Below, one piece after another: positions 1,265-54,695 of a stretch of DNA of 64,000 bases. The notes below the pieces were generated by a model. The model did not search any database and had not been told where the DNA came from. It saw only the letters and a program-made list of their open reading frames with translations. Numbering within the stretch: position 1 is the stretch's first letter; every line of letters begins with the position of its first letter. The DNA is taken from the IMG/VR virus record IMGVR_UViG_3300034082_001032; one strand, 5' to 3'. The stretch comes from a virus. Lineage: Duplodnaviria > Heunggongvirae > Uroviricota > Caudoviricetes > Crassvirales. The position numbers and the translations under genes were made by a program.

Positions 1265-2086
1265 TTATATTTTATATCCAAAATCATTAAAGAACCATCT
1301 ATAACTGTCCTCTATTATCTTACAAGCATTAGGTCCTAACACTTCACGATAATCATCCTTTACAGGTTTGAGTTCACCACGAATGACATGATCTCCAAAT
1401 ATTCCATACCACTTATCATCTTCTGTGGAGTATTGTTGAATATTTTTGAAGTCATGTTGGAAGAACGGAATCTCTAGATAGTCATAGATGCGCTTTAGTT
1501 GCGCATTAGGATCTATACACAGTTCTTCAAATTTAATAAATAGGATGTGTTGATGTGTACCAGCTACGAGTGTCTGGTATAATCGGTCCAGAGCTGGACC
1601 AATAGGAGGATTGTTGGACCACACCACCATACGCTTATCTGTGGTGGTACCTGTTAGGTTTCCCCAGTTAGCAATGTTTGTGTCCACCAAAGGGTTCTGT
1701 CTATACTTCTTCTCTAGAGAAGAATATATAGCACGGATGTCCCTAATCATGCAAATAATCTTGGGGTTGGGATCAAAGGCATGAAGAAAATCACGCTCCA
1801 TTGCCCAACCCCTAGATTTTTCCATAACATACGGACGTTCTGTTATAGCATTATAGAATCCATAGAGTCCATCTTTCAACATTCCCTTAAACCCTGCTTC
1901 CATGAGTTGTTGATCCTGTGCCTTAAACTCTAATCCGTTAGAGAAATAGTTACGGGCATTTGTGTACATCTCAAAGATGCCAGATGTAGGAGTGGAATGA
2001 ATCTCTGGATTCTGTGCTAGAATGTTTTGAATAAGGGTACTTCCAGCTCTTGGGAGAGAGCTGTTGTAGAATATCTTCTTGACCAT
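1265..2086 (-). CDS. Sulfotransferase (PAPS-dependent, Sulfotransfer_3/Stf0-like)
   Basis: 273-aa ORF. N-terminal 'SSLPRAGSTLIQNIL' matches the 5'-phosphosulfate-binding loop (PRSGST). 'CMIRDIRAIYSSLEKKY' matches the 3'-phosphate-binding RDxR...S motif. It overlaps the next ORF by 8 nt. Confidence 0.65.
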   Translation of the reverse strand: MVKKIFYNSSLPRAGSTLIQNILAQNPEIHSTPTSGIFEMYTNARNYFSNGLEFKAQDQQLMEAGFKGMLKDGLYGFYNAITERPYVMEKSRGWAMERDFLHAFDPNPKIICMIRDIRAIYSSLEKKYRQNPLVDTNIANWGNLTGTTTDKRMVVWSNNPPIGPALDRLYQTLVAGTHQHILFIKFEELCIDPNAQLKRIYDYLEIPFFQHDFKNIQQYSTEDDKWYGIFGDHVIRGELKPVKDDYREVLGPNACKIIEDSYRWFFNDFGYKI

Positions 2087-2111
2087 TATGTTTGTTGGTT
2101 TTAATGTTCAA

Positions 2112-2462
2112 TTAGAATGGATTGAAGTCCTTTGGATTTCCTTCAATAAACTCAACAGCTTCTGTTCCTACTTGCTCACAAATAGTGCCAAGAATTACAG
2201 TGTCATCAATACCCCACTCTTGAATGTAAGGAGCACCCAAGTTGAGGCTACCGCCCAACAGACGTTTGAAGGTTTCCATGTTTCCTTCAGCATCAAATGT
2301 AGCAGTACCATAGATGAGACTAAAGCTCACTTCTTCAGCACCTAAGCGATAAGGAGATGCTACCGCTGTTAGATAGTCAGCTGTTTTAACATCATAGGCA
2401 AAAGGAGATTCCATTTCAGGAATTTCAGCAACGGGATTGATCTTTGCAAAAAGCATTTTCAT
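2112..2462 (-). CDS. Hypothetical protein (116 aa), possibly a small sugar-modifying accessory enzyme
   Basis: Intact ORF with the same orientation and packing as the flanking glycan-modification genes. No motif recognised with confidence. Confidence 0.35.
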   Translation of the reverse strand: MKMLFAKINPVAEIPEMESPFAYDVKTADYLTAVASPYRLGAEEVSFSLIYGTATFDAEGNMETFKRLLGGSLNLGAPYIQEWGIDDTVILGTICEQVGTEAVEFIEGNPKDFNPF

Positions 2463-2468
2463 AGCTAA

Positions 2469-3068
2469 TTATTGTTTTAAGTTTTTAAATAATAAGTCCA
2501 ATTGGAAGATGATGCCGTTAGAACAATGGTAGTCAACAATATCTACAATATAAAACCCAAGGTCTATCATCTTGTTCACCACAGCATCCATGAGAGGTGC
2601 TCCCTGATTGTATTCAAGTAAGGACACCTCCATCATTACAAAGGTAGTATTTTTTATTGTATTCTCACCACCTCTAATTATGTCTAACTCAGAACCTTGT
2701 ACATCTAGTTTAATGAAATCTATAGGAGCTCCATCAAAGTAGTTGCAATCATCTAGGCGCTTTGTAATCACTGTCTGTGTTTTACCCTCTGTGTACCAAT
2801 TGGTGTTCTCCTTATACAAGGAACTTCCTGTACCAATTGGATTTACATCCTCTATATGTAACTCAGCTGTTCCATTTTTATCAGACAGAGCTACAATTTC
2901 GTAGGGCTTACCCAGCAGTCTTAGATAGGGCTCACAGTTTTTGTTAGCCTCTATCATAACTATTTGACACTCAGGGAATTTATAGTAGAGTTCTTTAGTA
3001 AAAGAACCTACATGTGCCCCTATGTCTAAAGCTCTTTTGGGGTCAATGTGTCTAAATAGTTTGTCCAT
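2469..3068 (-). CDS. FkbM-family SAM-dependent methyltransferase
   Basis: 'RALDIGAHVGSFT' (SAM-binding GxGxG-like) and 'IDFIKLDVQGSELDII' are characteristic of FkbM-domain O-methyltransferases (Methyltransf_21). Confidence 0.65.
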   Translation of the reverse strand: MDKLFRHIDPKRALDIGAHVGSFTKELYYKFPECQIVMIEANKNCEPYLRLLGKPYEIVALSDKNGTAELHIEDVNPIGTGSSLYKENTNWYTEGKTQTVITKRLDDCNYFDGAPIDFIKLDVQGSELDIIRGGENTIKNTTFVMMEVSLLEYNQGAPLMDAVVNKMIDLGFYIVDIVDYHCSNGIIFQLDLLFKNLKQ

Positions 3069-3937
3069 TGGTTTATTCTATTGTCCCAGCTCCACTTAGG
3101 AGCATATGTCTTCACTTGTTCTTCAAGGTGCATTCCGTTTCTCACAGCTTCTATTTCTTTCTTAAGAATGGAAGCAAACACCTCAGCATGTTTATCCTTA
3201 TCCATCAGATAGGGATAGATAGTTGCCCATCCTTCTGTAGTTTCAGGCAGTGCTCCTATGTTACTTGTTACCACCCTTAGACCAGCTGACAGAGCTTCTA
3301 TCACAGCTATACAAGAGGTTTCCTCAAATGTACAGGGATAGGCTAAAATGTCAAAGCTGGAAAGTTCCTTCCTCAGCTCCTCGTTAGGAATAGATCCTCT
3401 GTATACAATTCCTTCTGTGTTTAGACAGGCGTTATATAAGTCTGTATATTTAGGATCTTCTGTAGAAGCAAAGTCTTCTCCATATATTTTACAGCTAGAG
3501 AAAACATGTAGTTCACAGTTTTTAAGCTTAAGTATATCCCATGCCTTTAGAAGAACATCAAGTCCTCTGAAGGGTGTGGACGTATAACAAAGCTTCACTA
3601 TATCTCTTTCTCCTGGTTTACGTGGTTCTACACCAACACAAGCGTTCTTTATAACAGAAGTTTTGTATCCAGGAATGTTGAATAGTTTCCTATAATATTC
3701 TGATTGCCAGTGACTTACAAAAACAAACTGATCAATTGCTTCAACGTTCTTAGGATCTGTCAACCATTGTACAGCCTGTTGGTCATAGCTCAACTGGTTC
3801 CAATAGATGGTAGGTTTTTCAAAGTCAGCATCTCCTATGTAGTTGAATATAGACCATTTGTCTTTATATTCTTCAGGCAGTCTTCTCATGAGTTCATTAT
3901 ACATAAGCTCTGTACCGCCCATTGGTTTATCAAACAT
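3026..3937 (-). CDS. Glycosyltransferase, GT-B fold (GT4 / Glycos_transf_1 family)
   Basis: C-terminal 'YPCTFEETSCIAVIEALSAGLRVVTSNIGALPE' is the classic E-x7-E retaining GT4 motif. Confidence 0.7.
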   Translation of the reverse strand: MFDKPMGGTELMYNELMRRLPEEYKDKWSIFNYIGDADFEKPTIYWNQLSYDQQAVQWLTDPKNVEAIDQFVFVSHWQSEYYRKLFNIPGYKTSVIKNACVGVEPRKPGERDIVKLCYTSTPFRGLDVLLKAWDILKLKNCELHVFSSCKIYGEDFASTEDPKYTDLYNACLNTEGIVYRGSIPNEELRKELSSFDILAYPCTFEETSCIAVIEALSAGLRVVTSNIGALPETTEGWATIYPYLMDKDKHAEVFASILKKEIEAVRNGMHLEEQVKTYAPKWSWDNRINQWTNYLDTLTPKEL

Positions 3938-4595
3938 ATCCGTGTTTTGTTATAAAGGTATTAAAATCACCCTTGAATTTCTTTGTTCCTATGTGGTTGA
4001 GTGTAATGGTTGGATCTAACCACACCTTATATCCTAAGGATTTCCACTTGTTACAAAGGATGTAGTCTTCAGATATAAGATCACCATTCTCCACCTTTAT
4101 GTCACACACCATTCTATGCTTTTCACCTTCACTCATATACTCATCACTTATATCCCAAAGCTTCTCCAATGCAAATCTACTTATTTTGAGGAAGCCAGTA
4201 CCTACACCATCCACTTCTATAAGCTTTTCATCCTTAGACTTCTTAAGAGTTTTGTCCATCAACTTCACTGTATACCCCTCATTCTTATCACTCTTTTTTA
4301 CAAGAGCCCCACCTATAAATGGTTCTGGTCTATCCAAAAGCCTGAAAAACCATTCTGGTTCCCATTCAGCATCAGAATCTATAAAGAACAGATCGTCATA
4401 CCCTCCCTCCATAGCAAGTCTAAATAGACTGTTTCTAGCTCTTTGGATGAGACTGTCATAGCTTGTATAGATGGCGTGGACAAATATTTCCTTTTCATAA
4501 GCCAGTTTAACCGTACCCAAGAGCGAGTTTGCAAACCAAACATCTATCCTTCCATCATATGAGGGTGTACCTATGAGCACTCTACGCATAGGCAA
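3930..4595 (-). CDS. GT-A fold glycosyltransferase (DxD type)
   Basis: 'VLIGTPSYDGR' at the N-terminus, a 'FFIDSDAEW' DxD motif and 'EDYILCNKWKSLGYKVWLDP' resemble GT2/GT25-like GT-A enzymes. It overlaps the upstream GT4 start by 8 nt. Confidence 0.5.
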   Translation of the reverse strand: MPMRRVLIGTPSYDGRIDVWFANSLLGTVKLAYEKEIFVHAIYTSYDSLIQRARNSLFRLAMEGGYDDLFFIDSDAEWEPEWFFRLLDRPEPFIGGALVKKSDKNEGYTVKLMDKTLKKSKDEKLIEVDGVGTGFLKISRFALEKLWDISDEYMSEGEKHRMVCDIKVENGDLISEDYILCNKWKSLGYKVWLDPTITLNHIGTKKFKGDFNTFITKHGYV

Positions 4596-4607: not shown

Positions 4608-7600
4608 TTATTTATTTCCACAACTTTTTTCTAGATTTTCCACTCTTCCATCTAGCTCTTGTATAGCTTTGATAATTGGTGCTATGAGTTCTTCATATGT
4701 TACACGATAGGCATCTTTATCTTCATCATGTCCCAGAGCATCAAACTTTACTCCTAGCTCATCTATAGCAGCTTTCACATCCTGAGCTATCACTCCATAA
4801 TGTTCTCTTACACCAGACAGCGTACCATCTTTTGTTCCATACTCAAACCCACACTCCTTAACATAGTTATCACGGTTGTCCCAATTGTAGGTTACAGGCT
4901 TAATCTTCTTAATGAAGTTGAGACCTAAACCATCTGGAAGAGGTTTAATATTTGTCTTATCACGACAGTCTGACACTACAGACCAAGCTGCATATACGCA
5001 GTTGCAAACGTTGTTGTTTGCGTTACCCCATACGGTGTGATTATCTATTGCAGAAGTTGTAGCGTTGTCTCCTATAACAATATTATTATCTGTACCAGCA
5101 TAAAAGTTAGCAGCAGAACTATTACCAATTGCAATATTATACTTACCGTTGCTATTAAATTGCATTGCAAACTGCCCAACGGCAATATTTGCTCTACCTA
5201 CATCATTAGAATTTAAAGCTCTATCTCCAACAGCTGTATTCCAAAGACCAGTAGTGTTGAGATTTAAAGCGCCTTTACCTACTGCAGTATTTCCTGCACC
5301 TGTTGTATTACAGCGTAATGCACAGAATCCCATTGCTGTGTTGCCGTAACCAATAGTGTTACAGGAGAGCGCTAGGTTTCCAGTAGCGGTGTTTTGATAT
5401 CCAGTAGTATTAGCTTTTAATGCGCAAAATCCTACTGCTGTATTATCGGATGCTGTATTTGCTTGTAGAGAATAAAACCCTACAGCAGTATTACCGCCTC
5501 CAGTAACGTTTTGTTGTAGTGATGAATATCCAACAGCAGTGTTATTTATTCCTGTTGTATTAGTAAATAGAGCTGTTCTACCAAATGCAGAGTTTCCTGT
5601 GCCTGATGTGTTTGAATATAATGTTCTGTCACCTACTGCTGTTAAATACCTGCCTGTATTTACTCTTAAAGCGCTTCTACCTATTGCTACGTTATTACAG
5701 CCTGTTGTGTTACATCTAAGAGCTTCAACACCTATAGATATATTATTGACTGCAGTTGTATTTTTTTCTGAAGCAAGTCTACCAATAGCTATATTGAGAG
5801 TTCCTGTAGTGTTACTTGCTAATGCTAAAGAACCAATAGCAGTATTGTCACTTCCTATTGTATTTGCTTCTAATGCACAGACTCCTACTGCTACGTTGTC
5901 TATACCAGTAGTAGTACTTCTTAATGCACAAAAACCAACTGCTGTGTTGTTTGAGGCTGTGTTTGAATAGAGGGCTTGAAGACCTACTGCTGTATTATTA
6001 CTACCTACAGTATTAGAATTTAAGGCATTTACACCTACAGCAGTATTACAAACACCTGTTGTGTTACTAAACAATGCATTAACACCTAATCCTGTGTTTT
6101 GGTTTCCTATTGTATTGCAAACTAATGCTCTACAGCCCAACGCTGTATTGTATGCACCAGTAGTATTACTTCTTAATGAGCAGAAACCTACTGCTGTATT
6201 GTTTGATGCTGTGTTACATCTTAACGAGTCAACACCTATAGCAGTATTAGAAGTACCAACAGTATTAGCAAACAAACTAGCAACACCCACCGCGGTATTA
6301 TTAGCACCTGTGGTATTATAAAGTAATGAGTATCTGTTTATTGCTGTGTTATTACCGCCTGAAGTGTTATTAACTAATGAGCAAAAACCTATAGAGACAT
6401 TTGAACCACCAATTGTATTAGATAATAAAGCATTACCTCCTATTGCTACATTACTAGTACCAGTAGTATTACTTCTTAATGCACAGAACCCGACTGCTGT
6501 GTTGTTTGATGCTAAATTACATTCAAGAGCTCTTGTTCCAAGAGCAGTATTACACGCTCCAACTAAGTTTTGTGTAAGTGCTTCTCTACCAATTGCTACG
6601 TTGTTAACACCTGTAGTATTTTTATACAGTGCTGTTTGACCCATAGCGGTGTTATTAGCACCTACTGTGTTATTTGCTAATGCTGAATTACCAAAAGCAT
6701 TGTTGTTGTATCCTGTTGTATTATTGAAAAGAGCTCCATGACCAAACGCTGCATTATTTATACCTACTGTATTAGAAAATAATGCTTGTAAACCAACAGC
6801 CGTGTTTGAAGTACCTGTTGTATTACTCCTTAAAGCTTGTAAACCAACTGCTGTGTTATTTGATGCTGTATTGCAAAGTAATGCACTTCTGCCTAAGGCT
6901 GTATTGTTAAGACCTACAGTATTAGAATATAAAGCATCTACACCTACAGCTGTATTAGCGGCACCTGTCGTATTATTTTTAAGTGAGCTTACACCAATAG
7001 TAACGTTATATGCACCTGTTGTATTACTTCTTAATGCACAAAAACCGACTGCTGTATTGGCTGATGCTGTGTTGCAATAAAGTGATTGATGGCCAATAGC
7101 AGTATTGTTAACACCTGCTGTATTGCATAATAACGATTGTAAACCTATAGCAGTATTGCATGTTCCTGACAAGTTATATTGTAATGCACCTCCGCCCACT
7201 GCAATATTTCCTACACCTATTGTATTTTTTGTTAATGCTCTTACACCCACTGCTGTATTACTAATACCAGTAGTGTTACATGCTAAAGTAAAATATCCGA
7301 CAGCAGTGTTATATGATGCTGTATTTTTATACAACGAACCCTGACCAATAGCTGTATTACGATTTCCTATTAAATTATTCTGTAAAGCATTAGCACCGAT
7401 TGCTATATTTCGTTCACCAGATGTGTTTGAAGATAATGCATCGGTACCTATAGCTGTATTAACTGTACCAGTTGTATTACTTCTTAATGCACAGAACCCG
7501 ACTGCTGTGTTGTTTGAGGCTGTGTTGGCAAACAAAGCGTTTCTACCAAGAGCAGTGTTATTAGTACCTACAACGTTAGTGTATAAGGCAAGTGTACCGA

Positions 7601-10600
7601 CTGCTGTGTTATTAGTTCCAGTCGTATTATTTTCTAGTGCACTTGTTCCTATCGCAACGTTAGCACAGGCAGTAGTGTTTTTTCTTAATGCATAAGGACC
7701 TAAAGCTATGTTACTGTTTCCTGTGGTATTACTTCTTAACGCACAGAATCCAACTGCTGTATTGTTTGATGCTGTGTTTTGACGAAGGGCAAAGAAACCC
7801 ATCGCTACATTACTGTTTCCTGTTGTATTATACCTAAGTGCTGAAGATCCAACTACAGTGTTGTAACATCCTGTTGTGTTACAGCAGGAAGAAAGTGTAC
7901 CTATAGACGTGTTATCAAGTCCTCTTGTGTTACATTGTAGTGTTCTGTACCCAACAGCTGTATTACTATATCCTGTGGTATTACTAAGAAGTGTATTAAA
8001 TCCAACTGCTGTATTAAATACTCCTGTTGTATTATTTCTTAATGCGCTAGCACCTACTGCTGTGTTGGATGATGCTGTATTTAAACAAAGTGCATGTACA
8101 CCTAATGCTATGTTATTACCTCCTACAGTATTACATCGTAGTGCGTTTACTCCTACTGCTAAGTTACAATTACCGGTTGTATTACCTATAAGTGCATAAA
8201 ATCCTAATGCTGAGTTGTAGGTGCCTATAGTATTAGAAGCTAGAGAACTTCTTCCTATAGCTGTGTTATAAGTACCAGTAGTATTGCTTCTTAATGCACA
8301 GAATCCGACTGCTGTGTTGTTTGAGGCTGTGTTACAGTATAAAGCATTAATTCCAATAGCTAAATTGCAATTACCAGTTGTATTACAAAACAAAGCGTTT
8401 AATCCAACTGCTATATTATTTGTACCTACTGTATTATACCTTAATGTACTGGCACCTATTGCGGTATTCGTTGCACCTGATGTATTATTAAGTAAAGATA
8501 AACCTCCTATTGCTACGTTACTAGCACCTACTGTATTGTTTGATAAAGTTAGCCTACCTACTGCTGTGTTGTCTGTACCAGTAGTATTATTTCTTAACGC
8601 ACTAAATCCTAATGCTGTGTTATTTGATGCTGTGTTTAAGTTTAATGCTTCTCTACCAACAGCTGTATTGCTGTTTCCAACAGTATTACATATTAAAGCA
8701 CCTTGACCAACAGCAGTATTTGAAATACCGGTTGTATTTTTATAAAGAGATTGATGACCTACAGCTGTATTACCTGTTCCTGAAGTATTGGCTCTTAGGG
8801 CTTGGGAACCCATAGCTGTGTTAAAAGTACCTATATTGTTATTTCTTAAAGCATATAATCCAACAGCTGTGTTTTGTACTCCTGTAGAATTGTATTGTAG
8901 AGCATTAGTTCCTACTATTGTGTTAGAAGCAATACTTCCACCACCCTTACCAACATCAACACCACTGCCACCAACTAGGTTGACACATAGGTCACCGTTA
9001 GTCTTTTGACATGTTTTACTATCGCCAATTGTTGTAGATGATGTAAACTTCACTATATATTCTGGCGTACCAGCTACAGCTACAGATGTACCACTTGAAC
9101 CTGCTGTTCCTGAAGAGCCACTAGTTCCTGTTGTTCCAGAGGTTCCAGATGTGGCACTGCTTCCGCTTGTTCCACTAGTTCCTCCTGAGCCATTAGTGCC
9201 TGAAGTGCCTGCAGTTCCGCTAGTTCCACTGCTTCCTGCTGTTCCTGAGCTACCAGCAGTGCCAGAAGATCCAGAAGTTCCTGATGTACCACCAGTACCG
9301 TTTGTTCCACTTGTACCACTAGATCCAGACAATCCGCTAGTTCCAGAAGTACCTGTTGTACCGCTTGTACCTGTAGTGCCAGATGTACCACTAGTTCCTG
9401 TAGTGCCGCTAGAGCCTGATGTACCAGATGTACCTGGACTACCTGCTGTACCAGCTGTACCAGATGATCCTGAGCTACCAGAGCTTCCACTAGATCCACT
9501 TGATCCAGCACTACCGTTTGTACCAGATGTGCCAGATGTACCAGAGGTGGCAGAAGATCCACTAGAACCGCTTGATCCTGATGTGGCTGATGTTCCACTT
9601 GAACCAGATGTACCTGTGGTACCACTTGTACCAGATGTTCCACCTGTTCCATTGGTGCCACTTGTACCTGAGCTTCCAGAGGTTGCACTTGTACCGCTTG
9701 TACCAGAAGAACCTGCTGTTCCAGATGTGCCTGTAGTTCCACTGGTTCCGCTTGTTCCTCCAGACCCATTAGTTCCTGAAGTGCCTGAAGAGCCAGAGGT
9801 ACCACTAGTTCCTGTGGTGCCCGAAGTACCCGTAGTTCCAGATGTTCCACTAGTAGCGCTGGTTCCAGATGTACCAGGACTGCCAGATGTACCAGATGTA
9901 CCTGTAGTTCCTGAAGACCCACTTGATCCTGAGGTACCTGTAGTGCCCGAAGTGCCTGCTGTTGCAGACGTACCACTTGTACCTGATGATCCACTTGAAC
10001 CATCTCCCCCTGTAGCACCATCAAGGTTTACTTGCCATGTGCTATATGTACCAGACCCTGTAAGCCTAAATACAATAAAGCTCAATGAGCCAGTTGCTGG
10101 GTTATAAGATGTAACCTCAGCTTCTACGTGATTGTTAGCATCGTAGGCAACAATAATAGACTGAGCAATTGTATATGCTAATCCTGTTCCCACTGTAATA
10201 GTTCCCGTTGTACCTACAGCTCCTAATGTATATGTTGATGTTGATGTTGTGGCAAATCTATCACCACTCAAACCTGAAGATCCAGATGTACCTGTTGTTC
10301 CTGCTGTACCAGAAGTACCTGATGTAGCACTTGTTCCACTAGTTCCGCTAGTTGCACTTGTTCCTGAAGTGCCCCCAGATCCATTTGTGCCACTAGTACC
10401 ACTCGTTCCTGATGTGCCTGTGGTACCACTAGTTCCTCCAGTACCATTAGTTCCACTTGTTCCGCTGGTTGCAGATGTTCCAGAAGTTCCACTAGACCCT
10501 GACGTTCCACTAGTACCAGTTGTTCCTGATGTTCCAGCGGTACCAGAAGTCCCTGTAGTTCCACTACTTCCTGATGTTCCACTAGTTCCACTACTACCAG

Positions 10601-12380
10601 CTGAACCATTTGTTCCAGATGTACCACTCGTACCAGCAGTTCCTGATGTACCAGTAGTTCCACTTGAGCCAGAAGATCCTGAGCTTCCAGATGAACCACT
10701 TGTAGCACTCGTACCACTTGTACCAGATGTTCCTGCAGAACCGTTAGTTCCAGAAGATCCTGATGAACCTGAAGTGGCAGATGTACCTGATGTACCGCTT
10801 GTTCCTCCTGAACCATCCGTACCAGAGATGCCAGATGTTCCTGATGTTCCACTAGTTGCAGAGGTTCCTGAGGTACCTGTAGTACCACTAGTTCCTGATG
10901 TTGCACTAGTTCCATCTGTTCCTGATGAGCCAGATGTACCGCTTGTACCACCACTACCATCAGTACCAGATGAACCACTTGTTCCACTGGTGCCACTAGA
11001 CCCACTAGTTCCTGTTGTACCACTAGTTCCACTAGTTGCTGACGTACCTGATGTACCACTTGTACCCCCTGTTCCATCTGTAGCACTAGTTCCGCTTGTA
11101 CCACTTGTTGCAGAAGTGCCAGAGGTTCCAGACGTACCTGTACTACCAGAGGTTCCAGAACTACCAGAGGTTCCTGTCGTTCCAGAAGTACCCGTGGTAC
11201 CAGAGGTTCCTGTAGTGCCTGAGGTTCCTGATGTTCCTGATGTAGCACTTGTTCCACTACTACCACTAGTTCCTGTAGTGCCACTTGTACCACTAGATCC
11301 AGAGGTAGATGAGCTTCCTGAACTTCCTGATGTACCTGTTGTACCAGAGCTACCTGAGGTTCCACTTGTTCCAGAACTTCCTGCAGTTCCAGATGTTGTA
11401 ACTGGAAAAATTGCTAGAGCACCATCTCCTCTAATATATTCAGATGTATTACCTGTTGCAACAATATTAATTGTTCCAAAGCTTGTAATTGGAGGAGTGG
11501 TTACAGAAAATGCAGGAGGAACTGCTGCCTGTACACTTGTAACTGTACCAACATTAAAAGTTCTATCTGCAGTGAGATCTCTAGTGACACCATTGATTGT
11601 AATAGTTCTAGAGTCTGGAACTGGTGTATATCCCAATAATCCAATAATGTCTCCAGCTGTCAAGGGAGCAGCGGAGGTTACCAATCCTTTTGCGTTTACA
11701 GCAAACTTTAGAGGTGTATTTGATCCATACACATTACTGTTAACTGTAGCAAGGGTGGTTGTCAGAGGAACTCCTGTGTTACCAACACCAGAAACATCTC
11801 CTTGGAGAATGATGATGTCTGATGGGAGATTGATTGGTACTGGTGTAATGTTTGTTACTAATCCTTTACCGTTCACTGTTACAACAGGAACAGTTGTAGA
11901 AGATCCAAATGTTCCTGGAGAAACATTCACAGTGGCTAGTGTAAATGGAACACTGCCTGGACCAGATGCTGTACCATCACCAGTGAGGTTGGTGATGTAA
12001 TTACCAGCAGGCTGGTAAGATGTTGAATCTAAAGATCCATCTCCTTTAACAAAATCATTAGAAGTTCCACCTGTTGTAATGAAAGCAGCAGTTTCAATAG
12101 ACCCTGTAAGGGTAAATGTATATCCTGCACTATTGATTACTGTATCTTCTATAAGAGCACCCCCTAGTTTTACTGGTTGACCAGGAGAAAGTTGAATGAT
12201 TCCGTTGTCAAATATATACCCAATAGTAGCATCTTGAAACTTAGCATCGATCTTTTCGAGTGCAGTTTGCAAGTTGTCATTAGTATTAATGCCTGTATAT
12301 ATCAAATTCTCACCTTCGTAAAATACGCAAGTGGCATTTAATATAACAGGACAAGGAGTTGCTTCACAACCAACAATCAT
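4608..12380 (-). CDS. Giant mosaic tail fibre (2590 aa): N-terminal Cys-motif anchor, collagen-like G-S/T triplet blocks, ~70 x 17-aa YadA-head-like repeats, C-terminal peptidase-S74 intramolecular chaperone domain
   Basis: N-terminus 'CEATPCPVILNATCVFYEGENLIY..NDNLQTALEKID' is shared with four other ORFs. There are long runs of GTSGTSGSSGTTG triplets. The repeat unit is 'NTAVGxxALxxNTxGxx' (Hep_Hag-like). The C-terminus 'WSVVSDCRDKTNIKPL...VTYNWD...GVIAQDV' matches the S74 endosialidase-type chaperone 'SDxRxK'. Confidence 0.85.
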   Translation of the reverse strand: MIVGCEATPCPVILNATCVFYEGENLIYTGINTNDNLQTALEKIDAKFQDATIGYIFDNGIIQLSPGQPVKLGGALIEDTVINSAGYTFTLTGSIETAAFITTGGTSNDFVKGDGSLDSTSYQPAGNYITNLTGDGTASGPGSVPFTLATVNVSPGTFGSSTTVPVVTVNGKGLVTNITPVPINLPSDIIILQGDVSGVGNTGVPLTTTLATVNSNVYGSNTPLKFAVNAKGLVTSAAPLTAGDIIGLLGYTPVPDSRTITINGVTRDLTADRTFNVGTVTSVQAAVPPAFSVTTPPITSFGTINIVATGNTSEYIRGDGALAIFPVTTSGTAGSSGTSGTSGSSGTTGTSGSSGSSSTSGSSGTSGTTGTSGSSGTSATSGTSGTSGTTGTSGTTGTSGTTGTSGSSGTSGSTGTSGTSGTSATSGTSGTSATDGTGGTSGTSGTSATSGTSGTTGTSGSSGTSGTSGSSGTDGSGGTSGTSGSSGTDGTSATSGTSGTTGTSGTSATSGTSGTSGISGTDGSGGTSGTSGTSATSGSSGSSGTNGSAGTSGTSGTSATSGSSGSSGSSGSSGTTGTSGTAGTSGTSGTNGSAGSSGTSGTSGSSGTTGTSGTAGTSGTTGTSGTSGSSGTSGTSATSGTSGTNGTGGTSGTTGTSGTSGTSGTNGSGGTSGTSATSGTSGTSATSGTSGTAGTTGTSGSSGLSGDRFATTSTSTYTLGAVGTTGTITVGTGLAYTIAQSIIVAYDANNHVEAEVTSYNPATGSLSFIVFRLTGSGTYSTWQVNLDGATGGDGSSGSSGTSGTSATAGTSGTTGTSGSSGSSGTTGTSGTSGSPGTSGTSATSGTSGTTGTSGTTGTSGTSGSSGTSGTNGSGGTSGTSGTTGTSGTAGSSGTSGTSATSGSSGTSGTNGTGGTSGTSGTTGTSGSSGTSATSGSSGSSGSSATSGTSGTSGTNGSAGSSGSSGSSGSSGSSGTAGTAGSPGTSGTSGSSGTTGTSGTSGTTGTSGTTGTSGTSGLSGSSGTSGTNGTGGTSGTSGSSGTAGSSGTAGSSGTSGTAGTSGTNGSGGTSGTSGSSATSGTSGTTGTSGSSGTAGSSGTSVAVAGTPEYIVKFTSSTTIGDSKTCQKTNGDLCVNLVGGSGVDVGKGGGSIASNTIVGTNALQYNSTGVQNTAVGLYALRNNNIGTFNTAMGSQALRANTSGTGNTAVGHQSLYKNTTGISNTAVGQGALICNTVGNSNTAVGREALNLNTASNNTALGFSALRNNTTGTDNTAVGRLTLSNNTVGASNVAIGGLSLLNNTSGATNTAIGASTLRYNTVGTNNIAVGLNALFCNTTGNCNLAIGINALYCNTASNNTAVGFCALRSNTTGTYNTAIGRSSLASNTIGTYNSALGFYALIGNTTGNCNLAVGVNALRCNTVGGNNIALGVHALCLNTASSNTAVGASALRNNTTGVFNTAVGFNTLLSNTTGYSNTAVGYRTLQCNTRGLDNTSIGTLSSCCNTTGCYNTVVGSSALRYNTTGNSNVAMGFFALRQNTASNNTAVGFCALRSNTTGNSNIALGPYALRKNTTACANVAIGTSALENNTTGTNNTAVGTLALYTNVVGTNNTALGRNALFANTASNNTAVGFCALRSNTTGTVNTAIGTDALSSNTSGERNIAIGANALQNNLIGNRNTAIGQGSLYKNTASYNTAVGYFTLACNTTGISNTAVGVRALTKNTIGVGNIAVGGGALQYNLSGTCNTAIGLQSLLCNTAGVNNTAIGHQSLYCNTASANTAVGFCALRSNTTGAYNVTIGVSSLKNNTTGAANTAVGVDALYSNTVGLNNTALGRSALLCNTASNNTAVGLQALRSNTTGTSNTAVGLQALFSNTVGINNAAFGHGALFNNTTGYNNNAFGNSALANNTVGANNTAMGQTALYKNTTGVNNVAIGREALTQNLVGACNTALGTRALECNLASNNTAVGFCALRSNTTGTSNVAIGGNALLSNTIGGSNVSIGFCSLVNNTSGGNNTAINRYSLLYNTTGANNTAVGVASLFANTVGTSNTAIGVDSLRCNTASNNTAVGFCSLRSNTTGAYNTALGCRALVCNTIGNQNTGLGVNALFSNTTGVCNTAVGVNALNSNTVGSNNTAVGLQALYSNTASNNTAVGFCALRSTTTGIDNVAVGVCALEANTIGSDNTAIGSLALASNTTGTLNIAIGRLASEKNTTAVNNISIGVEALRCNTTGCNNVAIGRSALRVNTGRYLTAVGDRTLYSNTSGTGNSAFGRTALFTNTTGINNTAVGYSSLQQNVTGGGNTAVGFYSLQANTASDNTAVGFCALKANTTGYQNTATGNLALSCNTIGYGNTAMGFCALRCNTTGAGNTAVGKGALNLNTTGLWNTAVGDRALNSNDVGRANIAVGQFAMQFNSNGKYNIAIGNSSAANFYAGTDNNIVIGDNATTSAIDNHTVWGNANNNVCNCVYAAWSVVSDCRDKTNIKPLPDGLGLNFIKKIKPVTYNWDNRDNYVKECGFEYGTKDGTLSGVREHYGVIAQDVKAAIDELGVKFDALGHDEDKDAYRVTYEELIAPIIKAIQELDGRVENLEKSCGNK
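5210..8870 (-). repeat. About 70 tandem 51-nt (17-codon) repeats encoding 'NTAVGxxALxxNTxGxx' beta-roll units inside the fibre gene
   Basis: The periodicity is visible in the protein. The off-frame plus-strand ORFs (5149..8815) translate to recurring 'PTAVLxxPVVL' shadows. Confidence 0.8.
9080..11400 (-). repeat. Two blocks of collagen-like Gly-X-Y triplet repeats (X,Y mostly Ser/Thr) in the fibre gene; highly repetitive DNA
   Basis: Protein GTS/GSS/GTT triplets for about 600 residues. The shadow ORFs 9151..10107(+), 10249..12000(+), 9080..10024(-) and 10268..11365(-) are all low-complexity VPLVP/QVQLV frames. Confidence 0.8.
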
Positions 12381-12408
12381 TATATATAAATTTTATTATA
12401 TGAACTTA

Positions 12409-12591
12409 TTAGGATTCTAAAATCCTCAATCTTTCCTCAAGCTCCCTAACCTTATCATTCACCTTTTCCAATGCAGTTTGAATGTTGTCATTTGAGTTAA
12501 CATTTATGTATATTAAATTAGCACCTTCGTAGAACACGCAGGTGCTATTTAATAATACTGGACATGAATATGTTCCACAAGTGACATTCAT
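12409..12591 (-). CDS. Stand-alone fibre N-terminal anchor-module protein (~60 aa) with a short coiled-coil tail
   Basis: The internal Met of the tracked 103-aa ORF gives 'MNVTCGTYSCPVLLNSTCVFYEGANLIYINVNSNDNIQTALEKVNDKVRELEERLRILES'. This is near-identical in pattern to the first 45 aa of the 2590-aa fibre. The upstream part of the tracked ORF is the frame-shadow of the Thr-rich neighbour. Confidence 0.4.
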   Translation of the reverse strand: MNVTCGTYSCPVLLNSTCVFYEGANLIYINVNSNDNIQTALEKVNDKVRELEERLRILES

Positions 12592-12595
12592 ATCA

Positions 12596-12853
12596 TTATG
12601 GTGCAGAAGTAGTAGTAGTGGTAGTTGTACTAGAGCTACTAGTTGTAGTGCTAGTTGTACTGGTACTAGTACTTGTGCTTGTGCTTGTGCTAGTAGTAGT
12701 TGTACTTGGAAGAGCTGCATTTATTTTAGCAAGAATATCTTCAAGTGTATCTCCAGGTTGAGCTCCAATATTAGCTAGATAGTCACCATCATAAATGACA
12801 CAAAGGGCATTTACTAGTGTAGCACAGGTTGGACAAATTGTAGCAATACGCAT
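12596..12853 (-). CDS. Fibre N-terminal anchor-module protein (85 aa) ending in a poly-Thr/Ser linker
   Basis: 'MRIATICPTCATLVNALCVIYDGDYLANIGAQPGDTLEDILAKINAAL' is followed by 'PSTTTTSTSTSTSTSTSTTSTTTSSSSTTTTTTTSAP' and then a stop. This is the third tandem copy of the N-module within 500 bp. Confidence 0.45.
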   Translation of the reverse strand: MRIATICPTCATLVNALCVIYDGDYLANIGAQPGDTLEDILAKINAALPSTTTTSTSTSTSTSTSTTSTTTSSSSTTTTTTTSAP

Positions 12854-12935
12854 AGTTGTAAAATTAGTGATTATTAATGATTTTCAATGAGTTACGAAAA
12901 AAAATTGGATATAATATAGCTATACATGTACCATT

Positions 12936-15900
12936 TTATAAGGTAACTGGTCTAGCTTGTGACTGTGCTCTGATACCAAGATCTTTAGCCAACTCTGGAT
13001 AGAACATAGGAAGCATACCAGCAGCTTGGTTACTTATAGGGAATGATTTCATTAGGTATTTAATCACCTTGGTTTTCTCTACAAGTTCCTCATCACCTAC
13101 AGCCATACCAAACATTTCAGTATTAAAGTTCATTATGAGTTTCTTGAAGTTATTCAAATAACTAATTGATGGGAATATACCAGAAGAAACAAGACTAGTT
13201 AAACTAGTAGGATCATAGAAATAAGCCAACTCGTCCTTAATCTTATCAGCAGCTCTGAGCATAAACTTGTATTGATTCTTAACCGCTGCATCTTCATCAT
13301 CGTCTGGGGCATTTGCTTTCAGTCCAATATAGAGAGCATATATAGTTAACATGAACATCAGATCCACCATTTGTCCTTTGATGTTCTTTCTAGTAAGGTC
13401 AATAAACTGAGACTGAGTCATTTCCAAATCCTTACCTGTTTCAGCTTTATACTCTTCTCTCTTCTTTTCATAAAGGTTTCTCATGAATTCCACACCTTTA
13501 TCATTAGCCTGCACAGAGTTGATTAGGTTGTTAATTGATCCAACCACGTCTTCAGATATCACCCTGAAAACATTTCTCATTCTTCCCCATTCATAAGCAT
13601 CAGACGCAGAATTGTATTTAAGATTACCAAGACGTACATCCACCAATCTTGGAATCCAGTTTTTAAATAACATAAAAGATTTTCCATATATGTTCATGTT
13701 TATGTTTCTTACATCATCCTCTGTAAGGTTACCAAGAGCATCTTTACTAACTTGTTGTACCTTTCTTCTAAGTTCAATTACAGATTGTGATTTTCTATCT
13801 ACTCCAGGTATAACAAGTTCTCCATTCTTTATTTCTCCAAGTTTAAGAACACTCTTAGTTTCCAATAGTTCCTTAACATCTTTCTCAAACTTGTTAGCTC
13901 TATCCTTTCTTTCTTCAGCACTACCAGAATACATATCCTTGTATTCAGGTTGTTCTCTGAGATATTCTCTAACGTTAATCACCCTGTCACCATCTACAAT
14001 TGTATTTCTAAGGAATGTAAAGAAGTTAGCAGACTGAACAAACATGTCAGAGTTTCTCATAAGCACCATCATGAACTCTTGAATGTTCTCTTGACTTAAC
14101 TTACTGAGAGACAACTTTTTAGCAAGCTCTCTATTATAACTATCTGTAAAAGGAAGGAAGTATTCAATTGAACGAATCATTTTGTCCCTATCCTCACCAC
14201 GAGTCATTTTATTTCCTGCCATCCAAAGTTCTGTAGATAAATAGTCTTGTCTGGTGAAATACGTTCCAGCATTAATCATAGATTGGAAGTTACCACCTAA
14301 CAGGTTTGAAAGAGCAGATAGAGGATTAAGACCTAACGCGTTGAGTTGGAATGTGTTATTCAATTGGTCAATCACCTTGTTGATACTAATCTGTCTTCCA
14401 GATAAGTTCTCTGGGAATATCTTAATTCCAAGTTTCTTATTAGCTCTTTCTCCAAAATCACTCAGGCTACCAAGAAGTTGATCAAAGCTTTCACTTTGTA
14501 TAAATTTCTGTCCATATATAATGGACTTCATCATATCCTCAACAAGCTTAGTGTTCTCGTTATTATTTGCTGTGTATTCAAGTTTACCATCTTTATATTT
14601 GGTTTTACCAAATGTAGATGTGGCAATAGCTTTCTTGTTCCTTTCTGTATTCACAAGAGCCCTAGCCTGAGCTTCAATATCACTTACATATTTATATTTA
14701 ATAGCCATTTCATTATACAAAGCCATGTTCCTGAACAGGTCTGTGCTTAGCTCTCCTTCAATCTCTCTAGTAAAATATGTAGGAATTGTATCAATTAGTC
14801 TACCTGTAAGAGGATCTGTTTTACCAAATCCTACATCTCCTTCATCAATAGAAACACTTCTTAAAAATTGTTCACCAAGACTAATTTTTCCACCAAAGAT
14901 GATTTTCTCCATTAGTCCTTTTCTAACAAATGGTAAGAATATCCTAGCTTCAGCCTTGCTGATATATCCTATCTCTTGATAGTATTCATTTCTTTCTTTG
15001 ATATAATTGTAGAAATCAAATGCAGCCTTGTTCTCAGGTTTCGTAAGTTCTTTCCATTCAGCAGATTCCCATTTATCTCTCTTTGGAAACTTCTTTGTAA
15101 GATCGTACAAAAACCAACCAGGTGATTCAGATGTAGATGTGTTATAAAGATTCTGAACTTGTGCCTTCTCTCTAGAAATCTCTCTATTGACTTCATCTTC
15201 AGAACCAACTCTTGCCTTATTATCAATTCTCTCAAGTTCTTCTGCAAGCTTTTCTTGAAGGAACTTGTTGTATTCAACCCCATCAATATTGTCTCTAACC
15301 CAACTAAAGTCTTTATCAGTTGATTTAGACTTTAGTTCTTTATAAAAATCACGTTGAAACTCATCAATAAGTTCGTTCTTATCTTTCTTCTTAAGAATAT
15401 CAAAGTAGTTCTTATTGTTTAATCCTTTAGCCTGAGCCCATTTATCGTAGGATTCTTTGAGGGCAGCTAGCTTTTTAGTTTCATCTATAGTGTCCATAGA
15501 TGCAAACCCAAATGCTCTGTTTGCTTTTTTGTACAAAGTTTCAAGAGCTTTCAATTGTAAACTTGATGTAGATACAAACCATTTAGTTATACCCTTGATA
15601 ACTTTCTCTGGAGAGAGGTAGTTATCAACTCCTTCAGATCCAGCAACAAAATCATTTACAAATTCTCCTGATATATCATCAAGATTTGAATCAAGTTCTT
15701 GTGCTAATTCTGTCACTTCACGAAGCTCTTCTCTAAGTGCTCCATCTTCTTCAGATAGTTCTCCCTGGAACAAAAACTTCAAGTCTGTGTTTAATGTAAT
15801 GTAAGCAATCAATGAGTTCTTAGCTGTTTCCAATTCCTCATAGAACTTACTAATATCTTTCTGTTCAAAATCTTTTACATCTTTACCAGCCCAGTTTTCC

Positions 15901-17603
15901 TTATATCTGTCAATTGTTTTCTGAATCTCTTTGTTCAATATCTTAGCCTGACGAAGCAAAGGTTTCAGGTTTTGCTTCATTTGCAATTGGCGTATAGCTG
16001 TGAACAAAGCATTAAGCTGCTCAGCTTTAGATAACTTCTCGCTAGGGAGAGCCTTCTTTTCAGAAATCCTTTTATATACAGCATTTAGTTTTTCTAAGAG
16101 AGCATCAATCTTTTTGTTTCCTGTACTTTCTCCTTCAAGCCCTACAGGAATAAGATAGTCATCTGTGATGTTCTTTACATTAACATCACCTATTTTGATT
16201 GACTGTAATTGTGGAAGAACACCAAGTTTAGCATTTCCAGGAGAGTAGAAAGCTTTGATTGGAATCATCCTTGTCTGCTGGAAGTCTTGTGACCTAACAC
16301 CATATACATTCTGCAGAATAAGTTTATACTGTTCCATCTGTTCTCTCCAAGCATTCACTTTATACCAAGGAACATCCTCATATTTATCAATATTGAGGTC
16401 CATAAACTTCCAGTCAAGGATGTTCATCTTTCCATCAGGAGTGATAGCAAGGAAATCAATAGTACCAGCCAGTCCACGCTTAGCATCATACACCATCACC
16501 TCAGACATAAATCTGGTTCCTCCGTTCTCTTTTGGAAAAGAGTTAAGACGATCTTTGAGATTATCTCTCAGGATCTCGTACATATCTCTATCATTAGGAT
16601 TGAGTTGAGATACATAAGCAGAGTCATCCAAAGGATTATCTCTTAGGAATCCATCATCATCTACAAATACAGAGAATGCATACTCTACATCAGCATGACC
16701 AGATGTACCTTTCTCAGCCTTGAGATCATCAACAGCTTTCTGATAGTCAGACTTGGTAAGATCGTTAGCCTTAAACCTTCTCTCATACCAGTCTTTAACC
16801 AAGTCAGTTACCCTTCTGGGAACTTTCTTACCGTCTATATAATATCCATCATCCTCCTTAGCAATCTTAGATTGGATGTCTTTAAGTTTATTGTATACAG
16901 CTTCTTGAGATGTGCTTTTCTGTAAGAATATAGCATCTTCTTCAGCCCTAATATCTTCCACTGTACCAAAAGATTCTCCAGATAACACCTTCATTGCTGC
17001 TGTGTCAAATCCAGATTTTTGGAAGATGCGCTTTAGAGCATCAAGGATTGTCCTCCACCAGTTCTGCACCTTAGCAAGATTAGTGGCATTCTCAGATAAA
17101 CCTTCTGCTTTATTTGAAATCACCTCAGCCAACACTTTACCAATAGCTTCCTTCTTAAGTTTTAATATATCAGGCTTGCCATCTTTTGTTTGATAGTTAG
17201 GATCAGATCCATATGTATCAATTACATTTTGTAAAATCCTATACCCATTGATTTCCTTCAGGAGTGTATTGAATAACTTAGGATCTGTTTGTTGTATAAT
17301 CTCAACAGCAAAGTGCATAGCTTCCTCAGGAAGTGCTATATCCTCTTTGCCCTCAACAACTTGTACAAGTTTCTGAGTGATGTTAGCTATACCATTAGCA
17401 TTCAGTTTTACTCCGTTAACAATAATATCATCAACGTTTTCAACCTTTACACCAATTCTGTTAAGAAAGTCTTTTGCTAACTTTACAGTTTTAGAGGATG
17501 CAATCTTTTCTGCCTGTTCAAATTCAAGTTCTGCCAAGAGAGGGTTTTCAACTCTTCCTAGAATTTCTTGAAATCTTGCGTCATTTGGATTTATACAAGC
17601 CAT
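12936..17603 (-). CDS. Large virion/ejected protein (1555 aa), mostly alpha-helical
   Basis: Intact giant ORF stop/start-adjacent to the 3839-aa gene. There is a weak PD-(D/E)xK-like pattern ('GTIDFLAITPDGKMNILDWKF') near residue 400. It is one of the three-plus giant proteins typical of crAss-like virions. Confidence 0.6.
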   Translation of the reverse strand: MACINPNDARFQEILGRVENPLLAELEFEQAEKIASSKTVKLAKDFLNRIGVKVENVDDIIVNGVKLNANGIANITQKLVQVVEGKEDIALPEEAMHFAVEIIQQTDPKLFNTLLKEINGYRILQNVIDTYGSDPNYQTKDGKPDILKLKKEAIGKVLAEVISNKAEGLSENATNLAKVQNWWRTILDALKRIFQKSGFDTAAMKVLSGESFGTVEDIRAEEDAIFLQKSTSQEAVYNKLKDIQSKIAKEDDGYYIDGKKVPRRVTDLVKDWYERRFKANDLTKSDYQKAVDDLKAEKGTSGHADVEYAFSVFVDDDGFLRDNPLDDSAYVSQLNPNDRDMYEILRDNLKDRLNSFPKENGGTRFMSEVMVYDAKRGLAGTIDFLAITPDGKMNILDWKFMDLNIDKYEDVPWYKVNAWREQMEQYKLILQNVYGVRSQDFQQTRMIPIKAFYSPGNAKLGVLPQLQSIKIGDVNVKNITDDYLIPVGLEGESTGNKKIDALLEKLNAVYKRISEKKALPSEKLSKAEQLNALFTAIRQLQMKQNLKPLLRQAKILNKEIQKTIDRYKENWAGKDVKDFEQKDISKFYEELETAKNSLIAYITLNTDLKFLFQGELSEEDGALREELREVTELAQELDSNLDDISGEFVNDFVAGSEGVDNYLSPEKVIKGITKWFVSTSSLQLKALETLYKKANRAFGFASMDTIDETKKLAALKESYDKWAQAKGLNNKNYFDILKKKDKNELIDEFQRDFYKELKSKSTDKDFSWVRDNIDGVEYNKFLQEKLAEELERIDNKARVGSEDEVNREISREKAQVQNLYNTSTSESPGWFLYDLTKKFPKRDKWESAEWKELTKPENKAAFDFYNYIKERNEYYQEIGYISKAEARIFLPFVRKGLMEKIIFGGKISLGEQFLRSVSIDEGDVGFGKTDPLTGRLIDTIPTYFTREIEGELSTDLFRNMALYNEMAIKYKYVSDIEAQARALVNTERNKKAIATSTFGKTKYKDGKLEYTANNNENTKLVEDMMKSIIYGQKFIQSESFDQLLGSLSDFGERANKKLGIKIFPENLSGRQISINKVIDQLNNTFQLNALGLNPLSALSNLLGGNFQSMINAGTYFTRQDYLSTELWMAGNKMTRGEDRDKMIRSIEYFLPFTDSYNRELAKKLSLSKLSQENIQEFMMVLMRNSDMFVQSANFFTFLRNTIVDGDRVINVREYLREQPEYKDMYSGSAEERKDRANKFEKDVKELLETKSVLKLGEIKNGELVIPGVDRKSQSVIELRRKVQQVSKDALGNLTEDDVRNINMNIYGKSFMLFKNWIPRLVDVRLGNLKYNSASDAYEWGRMRNVFRVISEDVVGSINNLINSVQANDKGVEFMRNLYEKKREEYKAETGKDLEMTQSQFIDLTRKNIKGQMVDLMFMLTIYALYIGLKANAPDDDEDAAVKNQYKFMLRAADKIKDELAYFYDPTSLTSLVSSGIFPSISYLNNFKKLIMNFNTEMFGMAVGDEELVEKTKVIKYLMKSFPISNQAAGMLPMFYPELAKDLGIRAQSQARPVTL

Positions 17604-54636: not shown

Positions 54637-54695
54637 AGAGAACGAACACTATATACCCCAATTTTGAAGATAATATAGCATTAATATTTTTTACT

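Follow-up and report, generated by a model that had tools for sequence, protein, structure and literature searches.

A cysteine-containing N-terminal module shared by a giant fibre and two conserved small proteins in freshwater phages distantly related to crAss-like phages

N-terminal anchors with exchangeable C-termini are known from gp17 of T7, from the head-binding domain of the P22 tailspike and from the anchor-branch tailspikes of Klebsiella phages and of CBA120. Branched tailspike complexes are known from CBA120 and G7C. In crAss001, the trimeric gp22 docks through its residues 1-26 into 12 A2B tail hubs and recruits further fibres, and the head fibres are small proteins held by short N-terminal segments, gp21 being a trimer of 97 amino acids (aa) anchored by residues 1-38 and gp29 a dimer of 122 aa anchored by residues 1-58 (PMC10172136). 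The tail hubs of this phage are stabilised by disulfides (PMC10172136). The present work concerns a Cys-containing module of ~48 aa encoded in a stretch of 64,000 nucleotides (nt) of the IMG/VR virus record IMGVR_UViG_3300034082_001032, hereafter the window, in which every gene lies on the minus strand. The module is common to the N-termini of three neighbouring open reading frames (ORFs), namely two small ones, A and B, called here the stubs, and a giant fibre, C. The favoured reading, to which we give a probability of about 60%, is that the module is a trimer-forming attachment domain and that A and B are co-transcribed minimal fibres without a distal domain, kept by selection.

Along the minus strand, from 5′ to 3′, the array consists of a 1555-aa gene, an 82-nt spacer, A, a 4-nt spacer, B, a 28-nt spacer and C. 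Two further module proteins, of 347 and 111 aa, form a second array. The coordinates of these five module proteins had all been given correctly by the first-pass annotation of the window, which was made from the sequence alone.

12936..17603, minus strand: 1555-aa gene, first in array order, upstream of A
12596..12853, minus strand: ORF A, 85 aa, module followed by poly-Thr/Ser
12710..12853, minus strand: module of ORF A (A-type, aa 1-48), beginning MRIATICPTCAT
12605..12706, minus strand: poly-Thr/Ser tract of ORF A (aa 50-83), ending SAP
12409..12591, minus strand: ORF B, 60 aa, B/C-type module (12448..12591) followed by a coiled coil
4608..12380, minus strand: ORF C, giant fibre of 2590 aa, module at 12237..12380
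46560..47603, minus strand: 347-aa protein, divergent four-Cys module at aa 1-48 (47460..47603)
46205..46540, minus strand: 111-aa protein, Cys-rich start, module positions 14-48 at aa 32-66 (46343..46447), poly-Thr tail

ORF A reads MRIATICPTCATLVNALCVIYDGDYLANIGAQPGDTLEDILAKINAAL, followed by 34 Ser/Thr residues and SAP, and ORF B reads MNVTCGTYSCPVLLNSTCVFYEGANLIYINVNSNDNIQTALEKVNDKV, followed by RELEERLRILES. ORF C opens with MIVGCEATPCPVILNATCVFYEGENLIYTGINTNDNLQTALEKIDAKF and runs from the module through a globular region (the 'FQDATIGYIFDNG' domain), collagen-like G-x-[ST] repeats and Asn/Thr-rich repeats to a C-terminal Peptidase_S74. The collagen repeats match PF01391 (Collagen, 1.2e-66) in 10 stretches, and residues 2470-2543 correspond to the Peptidase_S74 intramolecular chaperone (PF13884, 1.3e-12). 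Both marks of a trimeric collagen-like fibre, G-x-y repeats and a C-terminal Peptidase_S74, are found in ORF C, and together they imply a homotrimeric fibre.

The N-termini of B and C share 30 of 50 residues (60%; BLASTP E=8e-22), and those of A and C share 15 of 39 in an ungapped alignment covering positions 10-48 of both (BLASTP E=1e-07). A profile of the module aligns by its positions 14-48 with residues 32-66 of the 111-aa protein (hhalign probability 95.8%, P=7e-9), the match being confined to these positions because the Cys-rich first part of that protein has an insertion. With the N-terminal profile of the 347-aa family it aligns from 8-48 on 8-48 (hhalign probability 93.8%, P=1.7e-7). 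By these alignments, the five modules are homologous in register, beyond any likeness of composition. The first-pass annotation had seen a shared module at the start of the giant fibre and of the two small ORFs and divergent copies opening the 111-aa and 347-aa proteins, while allowing that the similarity might be compositional; the scores and the common register bear out both parts, and an ungapped alignment of A and C at the same positions speaks against a mere bias in composition. Its motif for the module needs one correction, in the Cys spacing, which had been given as C-x2-3-C-x4-6-C. The spacing is C-x2-C-x7-C in A (C7, C10, C18) and C-x4-C-x7-C in B and C (C5, C10, C18), and the module of the 347-aa protein has four Cys (C3, C6, C10, C18) spaced C-x2-C-x3-C-x7-C. 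Over ~50 diverse copies of the module, C10, C18, V19, Y21, G23, L26, D35 and K43 are invariant or nearly so. With regard to a zinc ribbon, A has three Cys (CPTC-x7-C), the 347-aa copy has four, and the sole Pfam match is a weak one to Zn_ribbon_HMPTM (E=0.088); disulfides and metal binding are equally possible for the Cys of the module.

The module belongs to a large family. A search of 1.84 billion cluster representatives (50% identity) with the module profile returned 727 proteins at E<=1e-3, including 310 at E<=1e-10. Among the best 150 of the 727, whose total lengths range from 56 to 1651 aa, the module corresponds to residues 1-48 in nearly all cases, and about one protein in eight does not exceed 100 aa. 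Behind a B/C-type module stands a 'FQDAGIGYIF' domain (33 loci), collagen G-x-y repeats that start 5-12 residues on (~30 loci), another globular domain or, in B, a coiled coil. A Pfam scan of 107 module proteins left the C-termini almost all unannotated, with Collagen found in 3, S74 in 1 and a YadA head in 1. The pattern that defines an anchor domain, one N-terminal domain with varied continuations, is thus present, with five copies in the window and at least four kinds of continuation. The earlier proposal of fibre C-termini swapped behind a shared anchor is in line with the many unrelated C-termini to which the module is joined in relatives.

The nature of these continuations bears on the oligomeric state of the module. 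Where collagen repeats begin 5-12 residues after it, the module stands at the N-terminal end of an obligate triple helix. Collagen and S74 need three chains, which argues strongly that the adjoining N-terminal module would function in a trimer. From its N-terminus, the module consists of a Cys-rich segment, a small turn that resembles a beta-hairpin (CV[FI]Y[ED]G.xL) and a helix beginning at D35. AlphaFold2 (AF2) models of B and of the 347-aa protein agree on bridges at 20, 26, 31 and 36 and on a helix from residue 37. In the model of B (predicted local distance difference test score, pLDDT, 82), this helix spans residues 37-59 and corresponds to a three-heptad coiled coil with I37, L41, V44, V48, L51, L55 and L58 in the a/d positions. 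In the model of the 347-aa protein, the module helix ends at residue 52 and separate long helices occupy residues 82-173. No solved structure in the PDB resembles the module model, and no homology of sequence or fold to a described anchor domain was found in Pfam, PHROGs or the PDB. Searches of 50,697 deposited phages with the locus DNA, the fibre N-terminus and the module consensus gave nothing relevant. The underlying principle is known, but none of the libraries and collections searched describes either this domain family or its conserved anchor-only mini-proteins. In practical terms, a fibre family of at least 727 clusters at 50% identity stands unannotated in curated libraries.

The conservation of the stubs is the second line of evidence. 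Scanning IMG/VR with the module yielded 73 loci (labelled L001 onward), and in nearly all of them a homologue of the 1555-aa gene lies directly upstream of the module fibre, so that the locus is syntenic over a large clade. The composition of the array varies from the fibre alone (many loci) to an A-type gene plus the fibre (~30 loci) and to the complete trio. Where A-type genes (MR[TIV]A.ICPTCA...) occur, they invariably head the array, and their C-termini differ widely. They encode poly-Thr-only proteins of 59-85 aa in a conserved position (L002, L004, L005, L074-L079 and the window), a form of 93 aa, a 131-aa form with a small globular domain (~20 loci) and long forms of 213-226 and 545-632 aa. 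When 5.8 billion proteins were searched with a profile, 88 small module proteins of 44-91 aa were obtained, some of them on contigs of up to 123 kb. Most are A-type and carry ~7 terminal Thr followed by an end of two or three residues (IAP, LPL, AAP and others). Stubs of the A type, in which poly-Thr follows the module, make up a large family with dozens of distinct members of 57-91 aa. Orthologues of B measure 61 aa, are 63-65% identical over their full length and keep the heptad a/d positions (I/L37, L41, V/L44, V/I48, L51, L/I55, L58). The whole trio recurs in the same layout in L074-L079, with A of 59-69 aa, B of 61 aa and a giant fibre of up to 3135 aa. In this lineage, the upstream gene is 28-29% identical and the fibre N-terminus 73% identical to that of the window.

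Substitution patterns point in the same direction. The ratio of non-synonymous to synonymous substitution (dN/dS, by the Nei-Gojobori method, NG86) is 0.13 for A between the window and L004 (pN 0.18, pS 0.65), with a range of 0.11-0.29 over pairs, and about 0.10 for the first 150 codons of C. For B between the window and L074, pN is 0.24 and pS, at 0.84, is saturated, so that dN/dS is not computable. Compared with strain L161, which is 94.5% identical, B shows eight synonymous changes and one non-synonymous, conservative change, D46E. All three ORFs are intact in 9 independent assemblies, which differ by a shorter poly-Thr in one strain and by two single replacements. Among near-identical strains, ORF A encodes 85, 74, 71 or 70 aa, the difference lying in the length of poly-Thr. 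The exact B protein is present in 45 blocks of the metagenome collection of the Joint Genome Institute (JGI). On these comparisons, both stubs are under purifying selection and conserved in position and length across lineages.

The second array offers a view of how stubs may relate to longer proteins. Within the clade, the 347-aa protein belongs to the core; its 2731 homologues bear the JGI name 'microcystin-dependent protein', and its aa 210-345 match PHROG tail and collar-fibre families. The 111-aa protein adjoins it downstream and is made of an expanded Cys-rich start, the module part, a helical segment and a poly-Thr tail ending LPL. Homologues of the 111-aa protein follow the 347-aa gene in 70 of 80 loci and have hypervariable C-termini, ranging from poly-Thr stubs of 98-110 aa to proteins with (T7-8-x-[AE]-P)n linkers and globular or fibre domains. 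One of them, in L082, has at least 200 aa and is 97% identical to the 111-aa protein over the shared part. In view of such longer relatives, the stubs resemble a module-plus-linker remainder that has been fixed and maintained. They look like derivatives, deprived of the distal domain, of longer module-linker-domain proteins, yet the stub state is old and maintained.

The relationship between the copies is consistent with an ancient origin of B. The modules of B and C are 73% identical at the nt level over 144 nt, with a longest exact run of 10 nt, while B and L004 share 73% and C and L004 81%. B is therefore an outgroup to C plus L004 and not a recent duplicate of C. L004 is the closest relative as judged by the upstream gene (88.6% aa identity), is without B and has a single module, to which both B and C of the window align. 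B is therefore a long-standing paralogue, acquired or lost by individual lineages or exchanged among them. The N-terminal 326 aa of C are 78% identical to L004 and 73% to L074. Across L001-L079, the identity of the 1555-aa upstream gene to that of the window is either 53-88% or 27-32%, which sets apart two classes with a deep divergence, and this division shows no correspondence with how similar A, B or the fibre N-terminus are. This mismatch points to exchange of fibre cassettes between lineages and suggests that the cassette moves among these phages.

Within the 144-nt module, breakpoints could not be localised. The single module of L004 has a B-like first half (T4, S16, A24) and a C-like second half, and nt identities over segments of 36-72 nt, which are too noisy to decide whether B was inserted or deleted by an unequal crossover between modules, amount to 79% then 67% for B-L004 and 78% then 85% for C-L004. 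Fibres from genomes in which B never appears often have these 'B-like' residues too. For the rearrangement envisaged from the sequence, an inversion or a cassette exchange linking 12.2 kb with 46-47 kb, there is no substrate, since the two arrays have the same orientation and share no significant DNA similarity.

Expression of the trio as a unit is suggested by the region upstream of A.

12854..12935, minus strand: 82-nt intergenic region containing a GCTATATTAT box within 12911..12924, CTCATTGAAAAT and a TAnnTTTG-like box, TAATTTTA

In 51 of 77 loci, the GCTATATTAT box is found at about -67, even in lineages whose upstream gene is only ~28% identical. The TAnnTTTG-like box, near -10 to -17, precedes the first module gene in many loci, the copy in the window being imperfect. 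The A-B (4 nt) and B-C (28 nt) spacers are too short for such a region, which is conserved solely upstream of the first module gene. A scan for sigma-70 promoters and terminators found nothing above chance. On the strength of its conservation, 12854..12935 is likely to be the promoter of an A-B-C unit, and the boxes hint at a promoter of Bacteroidota type. A similar box (TAATGCTATATTAT) occurs at 54670..54683, in the spacer upstream of a 413-aa gene that adjoins the major head protein gene. The two boxes may be a late-promoter element of this phage group.

The module is the block on which a large family of fibre proteins is built at the N-terminus in these freshwater phages, remote relatives of the crAss-like ones. 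In the mechanism proposed here, it would trimerise through its helix and fasten the protein to the virion, via a tail hub or another fibre. Behind it, C carries a 2500-aa collagen-like shaft with distal parts, A only a poly-Thr linker and B only a three-heptad stalk. The three proteins would be co-transcribed from the region upstream of A, and A and B would be present on particles as anchor-only stubs, probably retained since filled docking positions or displayed short tails matter to the particle. A and B may fill spare docking sites, display their tails or bridge other fibres. Of the three options given by the first-pass annotation for the stubs, namely recombination scars, pseudogene fragments of displaced fibres and fibre-less anchor caps, the last fits best with stubs that are conserved and selected.

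Several observations weigh against an attachment domain with minimal fibres. In one clade, a leader of 30-120 aa precedes the module, which hence need not be the extreme N-terminus. The first ~20 residues, which bear the Cys, are poorly predicted in AF2 monomer models. Many related phages hold the big fibre alone or A plus the fibre, and L004 is among those without B; such frequent absence describes dispensable accessories and not obligatory plugs. Two module profiles run with hmmsearch against gp21-26, gp29, gp38 and gp39 of crAss001 scored 3.3 bits or less.

Other explanations for the stubs have been weighed, and a first one relates to their tails. In the cluster F1 mycobacteriophages Che8 and Rita, virion glycans reportedly sit on C-terminal Ser/Thr-rich tails. 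In the window, poly-Thr tails ending x-x-P/L close four proteins of the virion block, with the ends ...TTTTTTTSAP in A, ...TTTTTTLPL in the 111-aa protein, ...TTSTTSTLIP in a 385-aa protein and ...TTTTTTTTAIP in a 1565-aa protein, and a 209-aa protein has an internal poly-Thr linker; the tracts differ in length among near-identical strains. Directly downstream of C lies a group of genes with the appearance of a glycan-modification pathway.

12605..12706, 46205..46240, 48645..48710, 37877..37990 and 37570..37640, minus strand: poly-Thr tracts
1265..4595, minus strand: glycan-modification-like cluster, directly downstream of C, including a 221-aa protein (phrog_1574)
3026..3937, minus strand: GT1 glycosyltransferase (PF13692, 7.8e-12)
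2469..3068, minus strand: FkbM methyltransferase
1265..2086, minus strand: sulfotransferase

It is possible, if rather unlikely, that the poly-Thr tail is what matters functionally in A and in the 111-aa protein, with the module serving merely to anchor a mucin-like, probably O-glycosylated peptide modified by the neighbouring transferases. The T6-8-x-x-P/L pattern on four virion-block proteins, the terminal run of ~7 Thr kept in A-type stubs of many lineages and the position of the three transferase genes next to C are in favour of this explanation. A phage glycosyltransferase gene and Ser/Thr-rich tails of virion proteins occur together here, as in O-glycosylation of the mycobacteriophage type. 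A precedent comes from mycobacteriophages, whose virion proteins, capsids included, are glycosylated by phage-encoded glycosyltransferases according to the description of that work in PMC11256854 (Freeman et al. 2023). However, the support for this is circumstantial. The poly-Thr tracts of relatives are plain punctuated linkers, (T7-8-x-[AE]-P)n, between module and distal domains, the transferases could act instead on host surface glycans, and B is without a Thr tail. The targets of the cluster could be the Ser/Thr-rich fibre and tails or else glycans of the host. A more specific version, in which the tails are acceptor tags for the GT1/FkbM/sulfotransferase pathway, A being a 'glyco-stub' with a mucin-like, possibly methylated or sulfated O-glycan and B a bare plug, is doubtful. 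Homologues of two cluster genes follow the fibre in L018, L038 and L039.

A second explanation is that A and B are not virion components at all but assembly factors or regulators that nucleate, chaperone or titrate the trimerisation or docking of C, for example through transient capping. Their co-transcription immediately upstream of the fibre and their accessory phyletic pattern are compatible with such a role, and small proteins with an in-register module would permit mixed oligomers or competition. Nevertheless, this is unlikely, as C already possesses its own S74 intramolecular chaperone, the A-type module bears bona fide distal domains in other phages (131-632 aa) and is in that sense fibre-like, and the Pfam and PHROG scans detected no similarity to chaperone families. 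Moreover, fibre chaperones of phages are normally encoded downstream of the fibre gene.

A comparably improbable scheme holds that modules bind each other and that A and B are adaptors or branch points of a branched multi-fibre complex formed with C and the 347-aa core fibre, of the kind known from CBA120 and G7C. One genome does encode five module proteins, the 347-aa one being highly conserved, and gp22 of crAss001 both docks to the hub and binds additional fibre proteins (PMC10172136). On the other hand, A and B have almost nothing outside the module that could engage a second partner.

Weakest of all, and very improbable, is the view of the stubs as recombination scars or decaying pseudogene fragments of displaced fibres, since it accords with the existence of longer A-type proteins (131, 213-226 and 545-632 aa), of the L082 version of the 111-aa protein and of a nearest relative that lacks B and whose one module aligns with both B and C, but conflicts with purifying selection over the whole length of A and B, with a B length of 60-61 aa, heptads and an A stub architecture kept despite saturated synonymous sites and a 28%-identical upstream gene, with the dozens of different A-type stubs carried by contigs as long as 123 kb, with ORFs intact in 9 assemblies and with the outgroup position of B, all of which is behaviour unlike that of pseudogenes or neutral scars. 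The first-pass annotation, which had raised this view, expected related genomes to tell whether the stubs are full-length fibres elsewhere. Longer versions do exist, whereas the idea of mere fragments of displaced fibres fails in the presence of full-length stub orthologues that are maintained.

The gene models on which the above relies have been considered individually. The conserved start of ORF B is the ATG at 12591, 5 nt past the stop of A, and a 103-aa form was rejected as a compositional extension across the poly-Thr codons of A that is not conserved elsewhere. Fusion of A and B through a frameshift in poly-Thr was likewise set aside, the frame of B being open across the tail of A only for compositional reasons and its extension not being conserved in L074. 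Recoding of stop codons was rejected as well: the standard code leaves the long ORFs uninterrupted, and TAA is the stop codon of both A and B in either lineage. Public gene calls over the collagen repeats of the fibre are wrong in most assemblies (L162-L169; 10249..12000 on the plus strand in the window), with false antisense ORFs of up to 583 aa called within the repeats and the fibre split. ORF A is uncalled in 8 of 9 strain assemblies (L162-L169) and called as 71 aa in L161, and B is sometimes lengthened to 86-103 aa over the poly-Thr codons of A (P0001, P0003, P0004). Tiny ORFs beside giant fibre genes deserve annotation as genes and not dismissal.

The clade with the leader before the module comprises L022, L025, L027, L028, L030, L032, L037, L038, L045, L051, L061 and L067 (locus positions ~5640-6000). 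Its giant fibre starts with a conserved MNVLPSIL.YG.SGSSGTSG, followed by the variable 30-120 aa and then by the module, and is paired with a 131-aa A-type protein ending ...GQVYRTGDVLKIVH.

As to the identity of the virus, there are PHROG matches for its terminase, its portal and its major head protein. Identity of the terminase is 41% with Leptolyngbya phage Lbo-JY46, 30% with Cellulophaga phages phi17:2 and phi4:1 and 26-28% with Crassvirales (cr50_1, cr1_1, ProJPt-Bp1). Over 70% of its length, the 1555-aa gene has 21.5% identity to gp052 of crAssphage cr108_1, the last gene of the giant-protein block of that phage. Judged by these identities, the phage is an environmental virus related to crAss-like phages at a distance only, and it belongs to no described family. 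The label 'crAss-like' used at first fits no more than distantly. The same phage is common in JGI metagenomes. The module occurs at 76% identity on two contigs (L170, L172; 59 kb and 112 kb) of metagenome-assembled genomes (MAGs) of Sediminibacterium (Bacteroidota), and one 'Rubrivivax' MAG contig (L171) also carries it. The 112-kb contig binned with Sediminibacterium is as long as a complete phage genome of this group; such contigs may point to the host or reflect faulty binning. The MAG contigs and the TAnnTTTG-like boxes give weak hints of a host among Bacteroidota.

Beyond this locus, the module profile offers a way to find the receptor-binding genes of abundant, uncultured freshwater relatives of crAss-like phages and to mark out the parts that can be exchanged. 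Should A and B occupy docking sites, they would constitute a natural experiment on the number of fibre positions that a particle must fill. If the poly-Thr tags are glycosylated, virion glycosylation would be extended to a new phage group.

Comparison with described systems places the locus among known principles. Like the cluster F1 mycobacteriophages Che8 and Rita, as they are described in PMC11256854, this phage combines Ser/Thr-rich C-terminal tails on several virion proteins with phage glycosyltransferase genes. The virus group and the host phylum are different, however, the tails here are nearly pure poly-Thr with x-x-P ends, and their modification is a proposal based on genes. The likeness to collagen-like fibres with S74 (of the endosialidase and T5 pb1 type) is limited to the shaft and C-terminus of C and concerns neither the module nor the stubs. 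With crAss001, which belongs to a distantly related lineage, the locus shares short N-terminal docking elements of oligomeric fibres, and in that phage fibres of ~100 aa are genuine virion components; its disulfide-stabilised hubs suggest a role for the Cys of the module. The fibres of crAss001 follow the portal, whereas the array described here follows the giant-protein block, and as the module and the crAss001 fibres have no sequence similarity, the parallel is one of mode of action and not of membership. In crAss001, gp25 and gp26 (L173, 20095..25008) have a shared N-terminal motif of their own, M.DR.Q.R.DT..RW...NPVL..GE..., so that N-terminal sharing among fibres also occurs, with unrelated sequence, in a cultured crassvirus. 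The closest correspondence is with the known anchor domains, as a short N-terminal domain is present on several fibres per genome and on hundreds across genomes, with homology that ends where the domain ends. Measured against general descriptions of such domains, the module is set apart by its three or four Cys and by its occurrence as stand-alone, conserved proteins of 57-91 aa.

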